A DNA stretch of 46,219 bases from Escherichia phage Rtp. Numbering within the stretch: position 1 is the first letter of the stretch; every line of letters begins with the position of its first letter. This document shows positions 1,384 to 44,966 of the stretch, piece by piece. The notes under the pieces were generated by a model. That model made no database searches. It was not told the DNA's origin and was given only the letters and a program-made list of their open reading frames with translations. A program made the position numbers and the translations under genes. The stretch is taken from sequence record NC_007603.1. One strand, 5' to 3'.

Positions 1384-1443
1384 AAGGGGATTCATCCTGA
1401 CTGGTATAATCCCCATATAAAAAACGAGAAAGGAAGTTAACGA

Positions 1444-2362: not shown

Positions 2363-2402
2363 CACGAATTGCTAAAACCGCTCCGGCGGTTTTAGTTATA
2401 GT
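2360..2402 (+). promoter_or_regulatory. palindrome-promoter cassette (TAGCACGAATTGCTAAA, 22 bp, TATAGT)
   Basis: TAGCA-N5-TGCTA palindrome at 2360-2374; TATAGT at 2397-2402; small inverted repeat AAAACCGC/GCGGTTTT in the spacer. Confidence 0.5.
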
Positions 2403-3080: not shown

Positions 3081-3120
3081 CACGAATTGCTAAAACAGTA
3101 CCGGGGTAATTTGTTATAGT
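3078..3120 (+). promoter_or_regulatory. palindrome-promoter cassette
   Basis: TAGCACGAATTGCTAAAA at 3078; 22-bp spacer; TATAGT 3115-3120 followed by TACCCCATCGACAAC leader. Confidence 0.5.
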
Positions 3121-3151
3121 TACCCCATCGACAACTACCAAGGATTAAGCC

Positions 3152-4030: not shown

Positions 4031-4070
4031 CACTAATTGCTAAACGCAGTCGCCAAGGATGGCATATAAT
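4028..4070 (+). promoter_or_regulatory. palindrome-promoter cassette
   Basis: TAGCACTAATTGCTAAA; 22-bp spacer with inverted repeat GCCAAGGATGGC; TATAAT 4065-4070. Confidence 0.5.
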
Positions 4071-4892: not shown

Positions 4893-4969
4893 GCCCCGCT
4901 AGCTCAATTGGATAGAGCAACGACCTTCTAAGTCGTAGGTTACTGGTTCGAATCCAGTGCGGAGCGCCA
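4893..4969 (+). tRNA. tRNA-Arg (anticodon UCU)
   Basis: Hand-folded cloverleaf: acceptor GCCCCGC/GCGGAGC (one C-A mismatch), D-arm GCTC-AATTGGATA-GAGC, anticodon arm ACGAC-CTTCTAA-GTCGT, T-arm ACTGG-TTCGAAT-CCAGT, encoded CCA. Confidence 0.7.
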
Positions 4970-5812: not shown

Positions 5813-6319
5813 ATGAGCAAAGCAGCATTAAAGATGGGTGAGGGAAATTTCAAGGCGCTCTACAACAAGAAGTATGGCGACATTGCTATGGTGGCAATCA
5901 ACCGCAAGTACACGCCTGAGGAGGTTTTCGATTTCGCCGTTCGATACTTCTCCTGGGCAGAGAGTGCAGCAATCAAGGCAGCCGAGACAGCGTCATTCCA
6001 GGGCGTAGTAACTGAACACCTCATACACAAGCCTCGAGTGTTCACCTTAACGGGTTTGGCGCTCTTCATGGGTGTTAACATCAATAGATTCGCTCGCTGG
6101 CGTACTGAGGCTGGATACTCTGATGTGATGGAATTCATTGATAACGTAATCTACGAGCAGAAATATCAGCTTGGTGTTGCAGGCATCATTAACTCCACCA
6201 TTGTTGGTAAAGAGTTGGGAATCGACAAGCCGCAGGAGATCACCATTAGCAATAACTCTACGGCTAACGATGTTGATAGCATGAAGGAAGCGCTTGAATC
6301 TGTGATTGGTAAGCTGTAG
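5813..6319 (+). CDS. putative terminase small subunit
   Basis: 168-aa ORF immediately upstream of the large terminase; SD AAGGAGG; extended -10 TGgTATAAT upstream; call by position and size only. Confidence 0.5.
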   Translation: MSKAALKMGEGNFKALYNKKYGDIAMVAINRKYTPEEVFDFAVRYFSWAESAAIKAAETASFQGVVTEHLIHKPRVFTLTGLALFMGVNINRFARWRTEAGYSDVMEFIDNVIYEQKYQLGVAGIINSTIVGKELGIDKPQEITISNNSTANDVDSMKEALESVIGKL

Positions 6320-6364
6320 CACTTTTTGTTAAAAGAAGAGGCCCAATCAATGAGATAATGGGCC
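6317..6364 (+). promoter_or_regulatory. palindrome-promoter cassette (variant TAGCACTTTTTGTTAAAA)
   Basis: TAG shared with the terS stop; 22-bp spacer; GATAAT 6354-6359 inside inverted repeat GGCCCA/TGGGCC. Confidence 0.45.
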
Positions 6365-6387
6365 CAATGAAATAACGAGGTGATGAT

Positions 6388-6864
6388 ATGAATTGGCATG
6401 ATATTTTTGATTATGATGGATGTAATTTATACAGAAGGGATTCTGGAAAAAAGGCTGGAACAAAAGCGGGCCCTAGAGGTTACATTCAGTGCAGAGTTGG
6501 TGGTGGACTACCTAAGGTTTATGCTCACAGGATTATATGGGAGATGCACAATGACAAGATACCTAACAGCATGGTTGTTGACCACATTAACCACATATAC
6601 GACGACAATAGAATTGAAAACCTAAGGTTAGTAACAGTTAAGGAAAATTCTAGCAACATTAAGAGATCAAAGAGAAATACAAGTGGCATACAAGGAGTTA
6701 GGAGAAGGAGTGATAACGGAAATTGGTACGCGGACTTAAGAGTTGATGGAAAGCTAAGGCAAATGCCAATGCGACATTGCTTTGAAGACGCAGCAGCCGA
6801 TAGGATATATCTTGAAGTGTACCACGGGTTTCATCCAAATCATGGAGCAATAGTAAATGAGTGA
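6388..6864 (+). CDS. HNH endonuclease with AP2 domain (homing endonuclease-like)
   Basis: HRIIWEMHNDKIPNSMVVDHINHIYDDNRIENLRLV motif; paralog of 21464..21979; sits between terS and terL. Confidence 0.8.
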   Translation: MNWHDIFDYDGCNLYRRDSGKKAGTKAGPRGYIQCRVGGGLPKVYAHRIIWEMHNDKIPNSMVVDHINHIYDDNRIENLRLVTVKENSSNIKRSKRNTSGIQGVRRRSDNGNWYADLRVDGKLRQMPMRHCFEDAAADRIYLEVYHGFHPNHGAIVNE

Positions 6865-8428
6865 CCTAATCGTATGGGATGAGCTGACTCACGCTGAGAA
6901 GATGGCTATAAAGGCCATCTCTGAGCATAGTTTCGAGGGATTCTTGCGTTGTTTCTTCCAGATAACTCAGGGTGAGAGATTTAAAATGAATTGGCATGCG
7001 AAATACCTTTGCCGCGTCATAGATGAGATTCTTGAGGGTAAGAGAAAGGACACCATCATAAACGTAGCTCCTGGGTCAGCCAAAACCGAACTGTTTAGCA
7101 TCCATTTCCCTGTTTATAGCATGATTAAGATTAAGAAGGTTAGGAATCTTAGCTTGTCGTTCTCTGACTCACTTGTTAAGCGCAACTCCAAGCGCGTCCG
7201 CGACCTGATTAAGTCAAAAGAGTTTCAGGAACTTTGGCCATGCTCCTTTGGAACATGCAGGGATGACGAGATTCAGGTTCTGGATGAGAATGGTAAAGTT
7301 AGATTTGAGTCTATATCTAAGGCAATGGCGGGACAGGTGACGGGAAGCAGGGGTGGCTACATGACCGATGATTACAGTGGTTGCATAATGCTGGATGACC
7401 CGCTAAAACCTGATGATGCGCTGAGTAATGTAAGGAGGGAGGCTGTCAACATGCTTCTCAAGAACACAATTCGCTCGCGTCGCGCTAGCTCGGTAAAAGG
7501 GAAGGAAACGCCAATAATTGCTGTGCAGCAAAGACTTCATGTTCTGGATACTAGCCACTTCATGGAGTCAGGACAAATGGGCATCAAGTTCGATGTGGTG
7601 AAAGTTCCTGCCATAGTCACGGAGGATTACGCCGACACGCTTCCTGATTGGATCAAACAACAATTTATTGATGATGTTCTTTCATCACCATTTGTAGAGC
7701 GGGATGGGGTTAAGTATTACAGCTATTTTCCAGCAAAGGAATCAATAGAAGACTTAATGGCCATGCGAGACGCTGACCCTTACACATTCCTTAGTCAGTA
7801 CGCTCAAGAACCCGTAGCGCTTGGTGGCAATCTTATTAACGTGGATTGGTTCCAGCGCCTTAGTGATACATTCAGACCTCCAGCTAAGTACGATTATAGA
7901 TTCATAACTTGCGACACGGCGATGACTACAAAGAGTTATAGCGACTTCTCTGTACTCCAGTTGTGGGGCTATAAGGACGCTAAGATTTACCTGATAGACC
8001 AGCGCAGGGGTAAGTGGGAAGCTCCGGAGTTGGAAGCTGAACTGCTGGATTTCGAGAAGAAATCAAGGTCAACCAGTCAGTCAGATGGCATCCTTAGAAA
8101 GATTATTATCGAGAAGAAAGCATCCGGCATCGGACTCATTCAGTCGGCAGGAAGGGTAATGCGAACACCCATAGAGCCATACGTACCTGATAACGACAAG
8201 CTAACCAGGGTAATGAGCGCACTGCCGCAGATTAAGGCTGGCAATGTAGTTCTTCCAGAATCAGCGCCGTGGTTAAGCGGATTGCTTACTGAGATTGCAG
8301 CTTTTACGGCAGATGACTCGCATAAGCACGATGACCAAATTGACTGTCTAACAATGGCAATCAACCTGGTACTTAACATTGCCGATGATCCTAAGGCTCG
8401 ACTAATGCGCATAGCTGGAATGAAATAG
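6857..8428 (+). CDS. terminase large subunit
   Basis: 523 aa; N-terminal ATPase region and C-terminal nuclease-like region (ITCDTAMTT...DFSVLQLWG), typical terminase architecture. Confidence 0.85.
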   Translation: MSDLIVWDELTHAEKMAIKAISEHSFEGFLRCFFQITQGERFKMNWHAKYLCRVIDEILEGKRKDTIINVAPGSAKTELFSIHFPVYSMIKIKKVRNLSLSFSDSLVKRNSKRVRDLIKSKEFQELWPCSFGTCRDDEIQVLDENGKVRFESISKAMAGQVTGSRGGYMTDDYSGCIMLDDPLKPDDALSNVRREAVNMLLKNTIRSRRASSVKGKETPIIAVQQRLHVLDTSHFMESGQMGIKFDVVKVPAIVTEDYADTLPDWIKQQFIDDVLSSPFVERDGVKYYSYFPAKESIEDLMAMRDADPYTFLSQYAQEPVALGGNLINVDWFQRLSDTFRPPAKYDYRFITCDTAMTTKSYSDFSVLQLWGYKDAKIYLIDQRRGKWEAPELEAELLDFEKKSRSTSQSDGILRKIIIEKKASGIGLIQSAGRVMRTPIEPYVPDNDKLTRVMSALPQIKAGNVVLPESAPWLSGLLTEIAAFTADDSHKHDDQIDCLTMAINLVLNIADDPKARLMRIAGMK

Positions 8429-8468
8429 CACAAATTGCTAAACAATGAGGCCACGGATGGCGTATATT
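8426..8468 (+). promoter_or_regulatory. palindrome-promoter cassette
   Basis: TAGCACAAATTGCTAAA shares TAG with the terL stop; 22-bp spacer; TATATT 8463-8468. Confidence 0.5.
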
Positions 8469-16269: not shown

Positions 16270-16276
16270 AACACAA

Positions 16277-16297
16277 ACCCTCTTCGGAGGGTTTTTT
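16277..16297 (+). terminator. rho-independent terminator
   Basis: CCCTC-TTCG-GAGGG hairpin plus T6. Confidence 0.65.
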
Positions 16298-20640: not shown

Positions 20641-21396
20641 ATGTTAAGTCCAAAGTTTGAAAATCAGTTGCAAAGTCTTTTCCCTGGCGAGATTGTGACT
20701 CTAATCCAGGTAGACGGGACGGCGTTTGGCTCTCTCGTTTACAACTTCCACAATGAAAACATTTCATATACACCAGAAGAAATAATGCTGGCCCAAATGA
20801 ATGGCGAGCCACTACCAGAGAAGATAATCACATTTCGCGGAGAAGAGTATGGCCCAAGACCTTTCGGTATCTCTGGTATAAATATGACTTCTGACGGCAA
20901 GGCTAACAAGGTCACGTTGACAGTATCAAACGTAGACCAGAGAATTAGCGCACTTATCCGCACCTACAATGGATTGGTTAAAGCAAAGGTTACTATCTGG
21001 ATTACTACGCGCGATAACATCAATGAGGATGGAAGCATTGCCGATGGTGACTATCGCCGATTCGTTTACTTCATTGAGAGACCAAAGCAAGTTGATTACA
21101 AGACGGCATCATTTGAGCTTAGCAGTCCGATGGATATGGATGGTATCTACATTCCTGCGCGACTTGTTCAGTCTGTTTGCTATTGGGCGTCAAGGGGGTG
21201 GTATCGCAGCGGTAATGGCTGCGACTACGCTGGTAATCGTTATTTTGACAAGGATGACAATCCAGTTAATGACCCCTCCTTAGACTTCTGCGCCGGAACT
21301 GTTAATAGCTGCAAGATTAGATTCGGCGAGAATAACCAGCTTTCATTTGGTGGATGCGCGGCTGCAAGCCTGCAAGCTAAAGCTAATCAATCATAG
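20641..21396 (+). CDS. minor tail protein (lambda L-like)
   Basis: C-terminal cysteine cluster (C..C..C..C) as in gpL Fe-S proteins; ORF track 20629 trimmed to ATG 20641 with GGAG SD. Confidence 0.75.
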   Translation: MLSPKFENQLQSLFPGEIVTLIQVDGTAFGSLVYNFHNENISYTPEEIMLAQMNGEPLPEKIITFRGEEYGPRPFGISGINMTSDGKANKVTLTVSNVDQRISALIRTYNGLVKAKVTIWITTRDNINEDGSIADGDYRRFVYFIERPKQVDYKTASFELSSPMDMDGIYIPARLVQSVCYWASRGWYRSGNGCDYAGNRYFDKDDNPVNDPSLDFCAGTVNSCKIRFGENNQLSFGGCAAASLQAKANQS

Positions 21397-21441
21397 CACT
21401 TATTGCTAAGAGGATAGCTCAATATTGCGCTATCCTATAAT
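21394..21441 (+). promoter_or_regulatory. palindrome-promoter cassette (27-bp spacer variant)
   Basis: TAGCACTTATTGCTAAG shares TAG with the L stop; inverted repeat GGATAGC/GCTATCC; TATAAT 21436-21441. Confidence 0.45.
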
Positions 21442-21463
21442 CTCTTAAATTGGGGGTTAAAAT

Positions 21464-21979
21464 ATGAATTGGCATGATTACTTTAGATATGAAGACGGCA
21501 AGTTATACTGGATTAGCTTTCCAAACCCAGAGCAGACAAGGAGCGTAAAGATAGGAGATGTTGCTGGATACAAACACCCTGACAACAAGGGTTACATTAG
21601 GGTTCAAGTTATGGGTAAGATGCTAAGGGTCCATCGCGTGATATGGGAAATGCATAACGGAAAAATACCAGAAGGCATGGAGATTGACCACATAAATGGG
21701 ATTAGATCAGACAACAGAATTGAAAACCTAAGAATTGTTAATGGTCTTGAGAACATGAAAAATAAGGGGATTTATAAAAACAACAAAACTGGATTTGTTG
21801 GGGTTGAGAAAATTAAAGCAAACGGAAAGTACAGGGCAAGCATAAGAGTTAATAAAAAACTTATTTTTCTAGGTGAGTATATTTCAATTGAAGATGCCAT
21901 TGACGCTAGAAAGAAAGCTGAATGTGAATACCTTTTCCATAAGAATCACGGAGTTAGAAATGCTTACACCAAAAGTTAA
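21464..21979 (+). CDS. HNH endonuclease with AP2 domain (homing endonuclease-like), paralog of 6388..6864
   Basis: HRVIWEMHNGKIPEGMEIDHINGIRSDNRIENLRIV motif; inserted between L-like and K-like tail genes. Confidence 0.8.
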   Translation: MNWHDYFRYEDGKLYWISFPNPEQTRSVKIGDVAGYKHPDNKGYIRVQVMGKMLRVHRVIWEMHNGKIPEGMEIDHINGIRSDNRIENLRIVNGLENMKNKGIYKNNKTGFVGVEKIKANGKYRASIRVNKKLIFLGEYISIEDAIDARKKAECEYLFHKNHGVRNAYTKS

Positions 21980-29628: not shown

Positions 29629-29671
29629 TAGCACGAATCGCTAAAGACAAAATTAAAAGGCGGGGTATGAT
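29629..29671 (+). promoter_or_regulatory. palindrome-promoter cassette
   Basis: TAGCACGAATCGCTAAAG; 22-bp spacer; GGGGTATGATTACCCC containing TATGAT. Confidence 0.5.
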
Positions 29672-29700
29672 TACCCCATCAACAACGAACGAGGTTAAAG

Positions 29701-33738: not shown

Positions 33739-33803
33739 TGTGTAAAGTCTCCATTTGTAAAATAGCACGAATTGCTAAGTTGGATTGTAGCATCTTTCAG
33801 GCA

Positions 33804-33828
33804 TAAAAAAACCTCCCGAGGGAGGTTA
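33804..33828 (-). terminator. rho-independent terminator (minus strand)
   Basis: Minus-strand CCTCCC-TCG-GGGAGG plus T7, overlapping the primase stop. Confidence 0.6.
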
Positions 33829-34749: not shown

Positions 34750-34807
34750 ATCAATCTATCTCTGAACAAATAAAAAAGGATGCACCGATTATGGCACATC
34801 CAATTCC

Positions 34808-37378: not shown

Positions 37379-37798
37379 ATGAATATTACAGACAAAGTTG
37401 ATTACATTGAGTTTTACCCTGGCCCGGTTAAGTCATGCCCTAAAGAGGATGATGAACAAATCTTTTGCTCTGATTGGGTTAAGTATAACTACCCAGAGAT
37501 GGTATTTTTCCACTGCGTGAATGAGGGTAAGAAAACCATTGGTCAAGCAAGAAAAGATCAGGCTAAGGGTCTCCTTAAGGGAGTGTCAGACTGTATGTTT
37601 CTTATACCTGAATCTATCCGAGGCAAATACCCTTTCGGAGCTATAGAGCTAAAGAGAGCAGGAAAAACGCAGGCAAGCCCAGTCAGTGAGGAGCAGAAGG
37701 CTTTCCTTAAAAGCGTAATGGAATCAGGTGGTTTTTCCGCAGTTGCCTACGGCAGGGAAGGGTTCCTTGCAGCATTCAAAGAAATGATTTCAAAATAG
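37379..37798 (+). CDS. VRR-NUC-like nuclease
   Basis: 139 aa; SD...IELK pattern resembling a PD-(D/E)XK / VRR-NUC core; immediately follows the helicase. Confidence 0.45.
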   Translation: MNITDKVDYIEFYPGPVKSCPKEDDEQIFCSDWVKYNYPEMVFFHCVNEGKKTIGQARKDQAKGLLKGVSDCMFLIPESIRGKYPFGAIELKRAGKTQASPVSEEQKAFLKSVMESGGFSAVAYGREGFLAAFKEMISK

Positions 37799-37838
37799 CA
37801 CTAATTGCTAAAGGCGATTTTAAAAGATGGGGTATAGT
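37796..37838 (+). promoter_or_regulatory. palindrome-promoter cassette
   Basis: TAGCACTAATTGCTAAAG shares TAG with the upstream stop; 22-bp spacer; GGGGTATAGTTACCCC. Confidence 0.5.
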
Positions 37839-37874
37839 TACCCCATCGAAACGAAACGAAGAGAGAGAAACAAA

Positions 37875-38075
37875 ATGGCTACTATCTACACTGGAAAATT
37901 CTACGAGTCACGCAAAACTGGTTATATTTATGAGTTGCAAATCACTGAGGATGGTTATGTTTTGGTTGATATCGAAGATTGCACTTACGCATTCGAGGTT
38001 AGCCCGACCTACAAGGATGACTTGGAAACTGTTAAAAACGAATTTGGAGAAAAATTTAATGAGGTATCAGAATAA
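37875..38075 (+). CDS. hypothetical protein (66 aa)
   Basis: ORF track 37827 trimmed to ATG 37875 behind the cassette leader. Confidence 0.45.
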   Translation: MATIYTGKFYESRKTGYIYELQITEDGYVLVDIEDCTYAFEVSPTYKDDLETVKNEFGEKFNEVSE

Positions 38076-38481: not shown

Positions 38482-38521
38482 CACTTTTTGTTAAAAATCA
38501 AATCCATGGATGGATTATATT
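38479..38521 (+). promoter_or_regulatory. palindrome-promoter cassette
   Basis: TAGCACTTTTTGTTAAAAA; 22-bp spacer with inverted repeat ATCCATGGATGGAT; TATATT. Confidence 0.45.
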
Positions 38522-40395: not shown

Positions 40396-40438
40396 TAGCA
40401 CTTTTTGCCTAACTCATGCCGTAAAAATGCGGCATAAT
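40396..40438 (+). promoter_or_regulatory. palindrome-promoter cassette
   Basis: TAGCACTTTTTGCCTAA; inverted repeat ATGCCG/CGGCAT in the 22-bp spacer; CATAAT. Confidence 0.45.
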
Positions 40439-43776: not shown

Positions 43777-43962
43777 TACTTCTCTCCGTGTTGTTTCTGA
43801 GCGGCCATTATATCAACGACCGCTTATAATTCATTATCAATTTGTGCTATTAATTGTTCTTAATCCACTTTAGACACATCCAGGTGCCAGCAACGTAAAG
43901 CGCTAGCTTTGCTAACTCGTACGCTAAGTGTGTAAATAAAGCAAAATTAGAAATAAGCTCAC

Positions 43963-44922: not shown

Positions 44923-44966
44923 ATAATACCGCATCCTTGCGATTCTGTTTTAGCAATTCGTGCTAT
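44923..44966 (-). promoter_or_regulatory. palindrome-promoter cassette (minus strand)
   Basis: Minus-strand TAGCACGAATTGCTAAA; 22-bp spacer; TATTAT; leader TTTCCATCGAAACGAAACAACG. Confidence 0.5.

Follow-up and report, generated by a model that had tools for sequence, protein, structure and literature searches.

The promoter cassettes of the T1-like siphophage studied here carry, besides a regulator palindrome, a second inverted repeat: a stem-loop of variable sequence whose arms co-vary and which lies across the -10 hexamer or in the spacer just before it. This stem-loop is real and family-wide. By the window we mean the whole 46,219-bp stretch of DNA that was analysed; it represents the family Drexlerviridae, its closest relatives in GenBank are the Escherichia phages ZL19 (~90-92% identity) and ACG-M12 (~84%), and pieces of the IMG/VR contig UViG_638275560_000001 match it at 100%. 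We consider it rather likely that the stem-loop serves as a transcript-boundary element in read-through RNA, acting as an attenuator or pause site and as a protective 3′ hairpin. To our knowledge a second, co-varying repeat over the -10 of the Rtp-type cassette has not been described before, and our search of the literature on the cassette, on T1/Rtp promoters and on Drexlerviridae transcript maps found nothing relevant.

IMG/VR, the window and ACG-M12 were scanned for the cassette pattern, which yielded 330 unique cassettes spread over many T1-like phages; with eight more genomes (genera Webervirus, Hanrivervirus and Veterinaerplatzvirus; ZL19 and A110b) the number rose to 404. Seven of the genomes used were unannotated Drexlerviridae. 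The column-by-column analysis used 220 unique cassettes, and the flank-pairing test a non-redundant set of 169. Folding of each repeat was judged against 200 dinucleotide shuffles, and hairpins with a stem score of at least 15 were counted as strong. Because the cassettes are phylogenetically related, p-values across the family are optimistic. Two loci labelled Campylobacter phage, UNVERIFIED (L123 and L128; GenBank MG065688 and MG065640), are nevertheless ordinary Drexlerviridae near coliphages and bear the same cassettes; the host label looks doubtful.

The promoter cassette and its presumed regulator

The window holds about 20 copies of the cassette, on both strands. The order of elements is a palindrome (TAGCA-N5-TGCTA), a spacer, the -10 hexamer, six mostly C/T-rich bases, an A plus TCGAAACGAAAC, a Shine-Dalgarno sequence and ATG, the last two within ~30 nt downstream. 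Usually the upstream gene ends on the TAG of the palindrome; this holds for 115 cassettes preceded by an open frame of 40 codons or more. The palindrome arms are invariant over hundreds of copies, and the distance from palindrome to hexamer is exactly 22 bp in 268 of the 330 cassettes. Within the hexamer A2 and T6 are invariant (220 unique cassettes), which is the sigma-70 pattern, and an extended -10 is indicated by a G two bases 5′ of the hexamer (G-14) in 80% of cassettes and a T five bases 5′ (T-17) in 71%. An A stands 7 nt after the hexamer in 82%; from the spacing and the conservation of this A we infer that it is the start site. The only variable positions are -18 to -7 and +6 to +11 relative to the hexamer, with G enriched at -10 to -7 and C at +8 to +11. 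A conserved 'GGATG' 5′ of the -10 was considered as a motif of its own and rejected, as it consists of the T-17/G-14 spacer element and of arms pairing with CCATC.

The centre of the palindrome lies ~42 bp 5′ of the predicted start, a position that would suit a class II activator, and the cassette is best read as an activator-type promoter for host RNA polymerase without a usable -35. The palindrome half TTGCTA was rejected as a -35 because 22 bp separate it from the -10. Matches to TTGACA-N16-18-TATAAT numbered 31 in window positions 1-40000, against 30.0 and 40.6 in shuffles; with canonical sigma-70 matches at this chance level, the palindrome cassette seems to be the main promoter type of the phage. 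The first-pass annotation had reasoned that, if transcription started further upstream, the cassette would be a processing or attenuation site rather than a promoter. That opposition is not supported: the -10 has the sigma-70 pattern, and cassettes of divergent operons retain palindrome and -10 without the hairpin, so that the cassette appears to be a promoter as well as the carrier of an RNA stem-loop.

The regulator acting at the palindrome is presumably the 157-aa helix-turn-helix (HTH) protein listed in the table; 823 phage records contain a homologue of it. Ten conserved inverted repeats upstream of Rtp genes, reportedly described by Wietzorrek et al. in J Bacteriol in 2006 as putative sites of the regulator Rtp52, are what we take to be this same TAGCA-N5-TGCTA palindrome, 22 bp 5′ of the -10.

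Several other features of the cassettes were recorded. The leader ATCGAAACGAAAC or ATCAACAACGAAC, directly after the predicted start, is conserved in many phages and is A/C-rich, G-poor and unstructured. AAGACA directly follows the palindrome in the cassettes 28000(-), 29629(+) and 46159(-) and in many cassettes of other phages with a 23-bp spacer, placing a partial -35 (GACA) 16-17 bp from the -10; such cassettes might be partly regulator-independent. A perfect palindrome, TAGCACGAATTGCTA, is found at 33763-33777, at the start of a 970-aa minus-strand gene and between that gene and the terminator 33810-33827. On neither strand is a proper -10 found 22 bp away, and the palindrome may be a repressing or orphan site.

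Stem-loops in the window and pairing across the family

The focal cassette begins at 37796. Its 6-bp core stem, GGGGTA-TAGT-TACCCC (37829-37844), had been pointed out in the first-pass annotation; it is there, and the stem is longer than was noted, at 9 bp. The 50-nt stretch that contains it folds at -17.1 kcal/mol (z -4.4), with 0 of 200 shuffles as good. Three other listed repeats, at 6340-6364, 21411-21436 and 40416-40435, likewise agree with their description. The one given as 29663-29678 exists one base away, at 29662-29677, and extends to 29659-29680 across one mismatch, and the 4-bp GCCA/TGGC repeat at 4052, although present, is not significant alone. Five of the six repeats thus listed fold far better than shuffles, and 11 of the 20 window cassettes fold with z <= -2.4. 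These repeats had been described as embedding or flanking the -10; this fits the seven window hairpins that straddle it, but four sit in the spacer and touch at most the first -10 bases (see table).

Table. Cassette stem-loops of the window, the elements of the focal cassette, and the gene of the presumed regulator. Straddling, repeat across the -10; spacer, repeat in the spacer that ends at or overlaps the first -10 bases. z and counts out of 200 refer to dinucleotide shuffles.
Feature	Position	Strand	Place	Remarks
Stem-loop GGGGATT...AATCCCC around -10 TATAAT (1405-1410)	1386..1414	+	straddling	-13.4 kcal/mol, z -4.8
Hairpin AAACCGC-TCCG-GCGGTTT with T-rich tail, terminator-like	2375..2392	+	spacer	wholly 5′ of -10 (2397-2402); z -2.9
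Stem-loop GGGGTAA-(10 nt)-TTACCCC, -10 TATAGT (3115-3120) in loop and stem	3103..3126	+	straddling	-13.3 kcal/mol, z -3.9
Weak repeat GCCA-AGGA-TGGC, 4 bp	4052..4063	+		z -0.5, 60/200; same type at 8450-8461 and 44928-44943(-)
Stem-loop GGCCCA...TGGGCC around -10 GATAAT (6354-6359)	6340..6364	+	straddling	before HNH endonuclease gene; z -2.8, 2/200; z -4.3 in whole-window scan
Hairpin AGGATAGC...GCTATCCT	21411..21436	+	spacer	ends at first T of TATAAT (21436-21441); z -4.3, 0/200
Stem-loop GG-C-GGGGTA-TGAT-TACCCC-A-TC across -10 TATGAT (29666-29671)	29659..29680	+	straddling	5′ of Erf-like gene; z -3.6, 0/200
Intrinsic terminator GGATGTGC-CATAAT-CGGTGCATCC with T-run	34778..34801	-	straddling	after regulator gene; -10-like hexamer in loop
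Gene of presumed HTH regulator, 157 aa	34808..35281	-		P22_Cro/YdaS-like HTH below Pfam cut-off; phrog_2856 transcriptional regulator, E 1.5e-84
Focal regulator palindrome TAGCACTAATTGCTA	37796..37810	+		TAG is stop of ORF 37379-37798; centre ~42 bp before predicted start
Focal stem-loop GATGGGGTA-TAGT-TACCCCATC	37826..37847	+	straddling	9 bp, 4-nt loop; first two bases of -10 in stem
Focal -10 hexamer TATAGT	37833..37838	+		22 bp 3′ of palindrome
Focal predicted start A 37845 and leader ATCGAAACGAAAC	37845..37857	+		followed by Shine-Dalgarno, ATG at 37875
Hairpin AATCCA-TGGA-TGGATT	38501..38516	+	spacer	ends on first T of -10 TATATT; z -2.4
Hairpin ATGCCG-(8 nt)-CGGCAT	40416..40435	+	spacer	right arm over first three bases of -10 CATAAT (40433-40438); z -3.8, 0/200
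Stem-loop AGCGGTC...GGCCGCT (one U.G pair) around -10 TATAAT	43800..43824	-	straddling	5′ of helicase gene; z -4.3

An Rfam 15 scan of the whole window returned no RNA family at or above the gathering score except a tRNA gene at 4893-4966 (RF00005, 65 bits), which lies among small early genes and is annotated as tRNA-Arg in relatives.

Pairing between the flanks of the hexamer is a property of the family. Stem scores of at least 15 were obtained for 44% of the 330 unique cassettes as compared with 3.4% of shuffles, and the 330 include 136 straddling and 48 spacer hairpins. In the non-redundant set of 169, the spacer can pair perfectly over at least 6 bp with the 12 bases that follow the hexamer in 50 cassettes, whereas permutation of the right flanks gave 6.9 ± 2.5 such stems and at most 15 in 1000 permutations; each left flank is thus matched specifically to the right flank of its own copy. 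The arms themselves are diverse, with 84 distinct arm pairs (for example GGGGTT/AACCCC, GGGCTT/AAGCCC, GGGATAAC/GTTATCCC and GTTGCCC/GGGCAAC). Furthermore, orthologous cassettes, those preceding the same gene in different phages, keep the hairpin while the arms change or the hairpin switches between the straddling and the spacer position. Orthologues of the 29659 stem read GGGATA/TATCCC and GAGGTA/TACCTC, the five orthologous cassettes of 43800 have five different stems, and in ZL19 and ACG-M12 the focal stem is kept only through G.U pairs. Together, the permutation excess, the number of arm pairs and the switching among orthologues argue that the conserved feature is the pairing and not the arm sequence, that pairing is under selection, and that a sequence-specific operator is excluded.

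A second operator, that is, a site for a dimeric protein overlapping the -10, had been one of the options raised for these repeats. Dyad symmetry over the -10 is the classical position of a repressor site, and the focal and 29659 copies share GGGGTA/TACCCC. However, the shared TACCCC reflects the C-rich consensus of the discriminator, and instead of one half-site at a fixed position we found the many arm pairs just described, in several registers, with loops of 4-17 nt and with unrelated stems in orthologues. We regard an operator as barely credible.

One register, (-12..-7):(+6..+11) counted from the first hexamer base, dominates: the loop consists of the extended -10 element and the right arm of the discriminator, and in 61 of the 136 straddling hairpins this arm finishes at +11, position -1 of the predicted start; a second register lies within the spacer. 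Since only -18 to -7 and +6 to +11 are free to vary, this geometry can be explained as a hairpin packed into a crowded promoter.

Read on the minus strand, the stems 37826-37847 and 29659-29680 are followed by U-runs (UUUUAAAAU and CCUUUUAAUU, respectively) and look like antisense terminators. This was rejected as a general role, with an A-rich 5′ flank in only 14% of straddling hairpins family-wide.

The folding molecule and a proposed role at transcript boundaries

Mismatches within the stems differ between the strands. Single stem interruptions were G.T in 15 and 14 cases and A.C in 4 and 4 (two data sets), whereas shuffles predict roughly equal numbers, 1.8-2.3 G.T and 2.6-3.4 A.C (p = 1e-4 and 0.008; a small sample of 18-19 cases from related cassettes). 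Of the 25 tetraloops in spacer hairpins, 6 are UUCG, and GNRA loops are seen as well. The hairpin also depends on what lies upstream: a score of at least 15 is reached by 53% of cassettes with a co-directional upstream ORF versus 14% in a divergent context (Fisher p = 1e-5), and 14-30% of cassettes with no evident upstream gene still have one. In the window, no hairpin is seen in 28000(-) and 35295(+), the cassettes at the head of divergent operons, in the minus-strand cassette nearest the right end, 46159(-), or in cassette 16304, which follows the canonical terminator 16275-16294. Family-wide, the hairpin is missing from 4 of 4 cassettes directly after a canonical terminator (p = 0.025), a result that is suggestive only, because there are just four true cases.

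On the strength of the G.T bias, the orthologues maintained by G.U pairs, the UUCG and GNRA loops and the dependence on an upstream gene, the folding molecule is most likely RNA of the sense strand, transcribed by polymerases that enter the cassette from upstream. As the left arm lies 5′ of the -10, the hairpin cannot be part of transcripts that begin at the cassette. Of the possibilities offered in the first-pass annotation, an RNA hairpin in transcripts begun further upstream, with a role in attenuation or processing, is the best supported; the right arm ending at -1 agrees with it as well as the G.T bias, the loops and the co-directional upstream gene.

A structure in the DNA was the other possibility raised. 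A cruciform or single-strand hairpin, extruded for instance under negative supercoiling left by upstream transcription, would expose or clamp the extended -10 and so tune open-complex formation. It is exactly the extended -10 that the stem flanks, the right arm occupies the discriminator as far as -1, folding on the minus strand is just as good, and the link to a co-directional upstream gene also fits supercoiling generated by transcription. Yet the free positions of the cassette already explain the geometry, stand-alone promoters at the heads of divergent operons lack the repeat, orthologues shift the hairpin from the -10 into the spacer, and a G.T in the sense strand becomes an A.C mismatch on the complementary strand. 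Cruciform extrusion is, moreover, disfavoured by loops of 8-17 nt, such as occur here. As a pure role, a DNA structural element is thus disfavoured, and we consider it improbable.

It is also conceivable, though quite improbable, that the stem-loop mechanically couples neighbouring transcription units, upstream transcription activating the regulator-dependent promoter. In a relay version, the hairpin would close at -1 and the incoming polymerase would be paused or released on the next promoter, a terminate-and-reinitiate handover; in a supercoil version, negative supercoiling behind the polymerase would extrude the repeat in the DNA and present the extended -10 as a single-stranded loop.

The role at transcript boundaries that we favour can be set out as follows. 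The inverted repeat would be a separate, optional module occupying the few free positions of the promoter. With its left arm 5′ of the -10 and its right arm ending at or before the start, the G-rich/C-rich stem-loop would form only in upstream-initiated RNA, transcribed by polymerases that come in from the adjacent upstream gene, and would mark the 3′ boundary of the upstream transcription unit. Read-through would be attenuated or paused, with full termination where a U-run follows; the upstream mRNA would be left with a protective 3′ hairpin and the next regulated promoter would be insulated. At least five T within the 8 nt after the stem are found in 12% of the hairpins that straddle the -10 and in 29% of those in the spacer, and the usual tail after straddling hairpins is ATCGAAAC. 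Since the U-tract is mostly missing and the tail is usually of this kind, most cassette hairpins are not canonical intrinsic terminators. A true terminator is found at 34778-34801(-), where 10 orthologues have different stems, all with a -10-like hexamer in the loop and a T-run; this copy may be terminator and primase-gene promoter in one structure. We hold the transcript-boundary role with moderate confidence; besides the usual lack of a U-tract elsewhere, the loops of 10-12 nt, the hairpins of cassettes with no evident upstream gene and the equally good folding on the minus strand count against it. Near this terminator, the 3′ end of the regulator gene resembles the palindrome (CAGCACGAAAAGCTA).

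The main rival is a purely post-transcriptional role, in which the hairpin would block 3′ exonucleases after endonuclease cuts in the A-rich leader, or guide such cuts, and would leave the polymerase unaffected; we think this possible but unlikely. The RNA-level evidence for folding is the same for both, 88% of straddling hairpins have no U-tract, and the conserved, unstructured leader ATCGAAAC comes directly after the hairpin. RNase III sites were considered and rejected, the stems of 5-9 bp being too short for an enzyme that needs longer ones. Loops of 10-12 nt, which are poor for a protective hairpin, make weak barriers and so count against the stability role as well. Cassettes preceded by a terminator lack the hairpin, which weighs somewhat in the same direction though it is compatible with either role, and the copy at 34778-34801(-) is a true terminator at the same position. 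Finally, the counterpart of the stem-loop in T4-type phages lowered downstream expression (PMC2839356).

Known systems, genome mosaicism and implications

The closest match to the cassette is the PeSL/PmSL family of T4-type phages. A PeSL comprises a stop codon, a promoter, a polyG..polyC stem-loop with G-T pairs, a Shine-Dalgarno sequence and ATG, the stem-loop lying between -35 and -10 or overlapping the -10; one such stem-loop reduced lacZ expression as strongly as rrnB T1, and the authors proposed, and partly showed, a terminator or attenuator role, and likewise an involvement in modular shuffling (Arbiol et al. 2010, PMC2839356). PmSL is the version in which a Mot box serves as activator box (Comeau et al. 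2014, PMC4122927). The cassettes described here are similarly repeated intergenic units that start with the upstream gene's stop codon and reach as far as the Shine-Dalgarno sequence and start codon of the next gene; they combine a promoter with a stem-loop of variable sequence, often a G-run and a C-run with G-T pairs, which sits either across the -10 or between it and the upstream element, and they flank small genes and coincide with indel boundaries. As in PmSL, the -35 is replaced by an activator box. In contrast, the host genome is that of a Drexlerviridae siphophage and there is no sequence homology; a 15-bp HTH palindrome at a fixed 22 bp from the -10 takes the place of TTGACA or TGCTT; and matches to the near-consensus sigma-70 -35/-10 of PeSL, with its 17-bp spacer, are at chance level. 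Most stems here are without a U-tract, and covariation, strand bias and context dependence are quantified here over several hundred cassettes. Because the near-consensus -35/-10 pair is not in excess and the genome is that of a Drexlerviridae phage, the cassette is an analogue in another phage family rather than a member by descent.

Like intrinsic terminators, the hairpins are GC-rich, have UUCG or GNRA loops and stand directly 3′ of a gene; a minority, 34778-34801(-) and 2375-2392, are full terminators with a T-run, and in spacer hairpins the T/A-rich -10 comes after the stem. They differ in that 88% of the straddling hairpins are followed by a sequence like ATCGAAAC with no U-tract and in loops that often measure 8-12 nt. 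Across the family, a hairpin plus U-tract was found in individual copies only, such as 34778-34801(-).

An inverted repeat at the promoter core also recalls the hairpin promoters of the N4 virion RNA polymerase and cruciform-regulated promoters. In N4, a phage polymerase reads conserved promoter hairpins with loops of 3 nt. The present cassettes, in contrast, have sigma-70-like signals, and their hairpin is optional, variable and biased towards G.T on one strand. An obligatory hairpin or cruciform was not found, given the cassettes of divergent operons without a hairpin and this one-strand bias. The Rtp52-site repeat (Wietzorrek et al. 2006) belongs to the same genome type and the same cassette; it is a sequence-conserved protein site, however, whereas the repeat examined here is a second one, variable in sequence and co-varying.

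The small ORFs at the two genome ends are densely interspersed with cassettes, which also coincide with boundaries of homology. When window positions 1107-46219 were compared with ZL19, 9 of 34 segment ends fell within -10 to +85 bp of a cassette start, where ~4% were expected (p = 7e-6), and whole genes with their own cassette are present in one phage and absent from the other (for example 6317-6872 and 21394-21944). This enrichment, the HNH genes that bring their own cassette, and the crossovers inside PeSL stem-loops of T4-type phages (PMC2839356) would fit a recombination structure, in which the stems promote, or result from, cassette exchange through modular shuffling or homing-endonuclease spread and have no role in expression. 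However, such exchange needs shared sequence, and no part of the cassette varies more than the arms; the sense bias for G.T, the UUCG and GNRA loops and the dependence on an upstream gene would also be left unexplained. We consider this explanation highly improbable. Two paralogous small genes, 6388-6864 and 21464-21979 (proteins MNWHD...), each stand behind a cassette of their own. One ACG-M12 relative is annotated as an HNH endonuclease, both genes are missing at the corresponding place in ZL19, and relatives in other phages likewise have their own cassette, with unrelated stems.

These results imply that two signals are contained in ~60 bp, an activator-dependent promoter interleaved with a structure that would act on the previous transcript. 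For annotation, the -10 regions of T1-like phages should not be read as operators, and hairpins at gene ends that are without a U-tract are probably functional. The several hundred co-varying stems form a natural data set on how hairpins that lack a U-tract and stand at a promoter affect read-through, mRNA decay and modular gene exchange. The promoter/stem-loop design of T4-type myoviruses occurs in an unrelated siphophage family as well, one whose regulator has homologues in the 823 phage records noted above.
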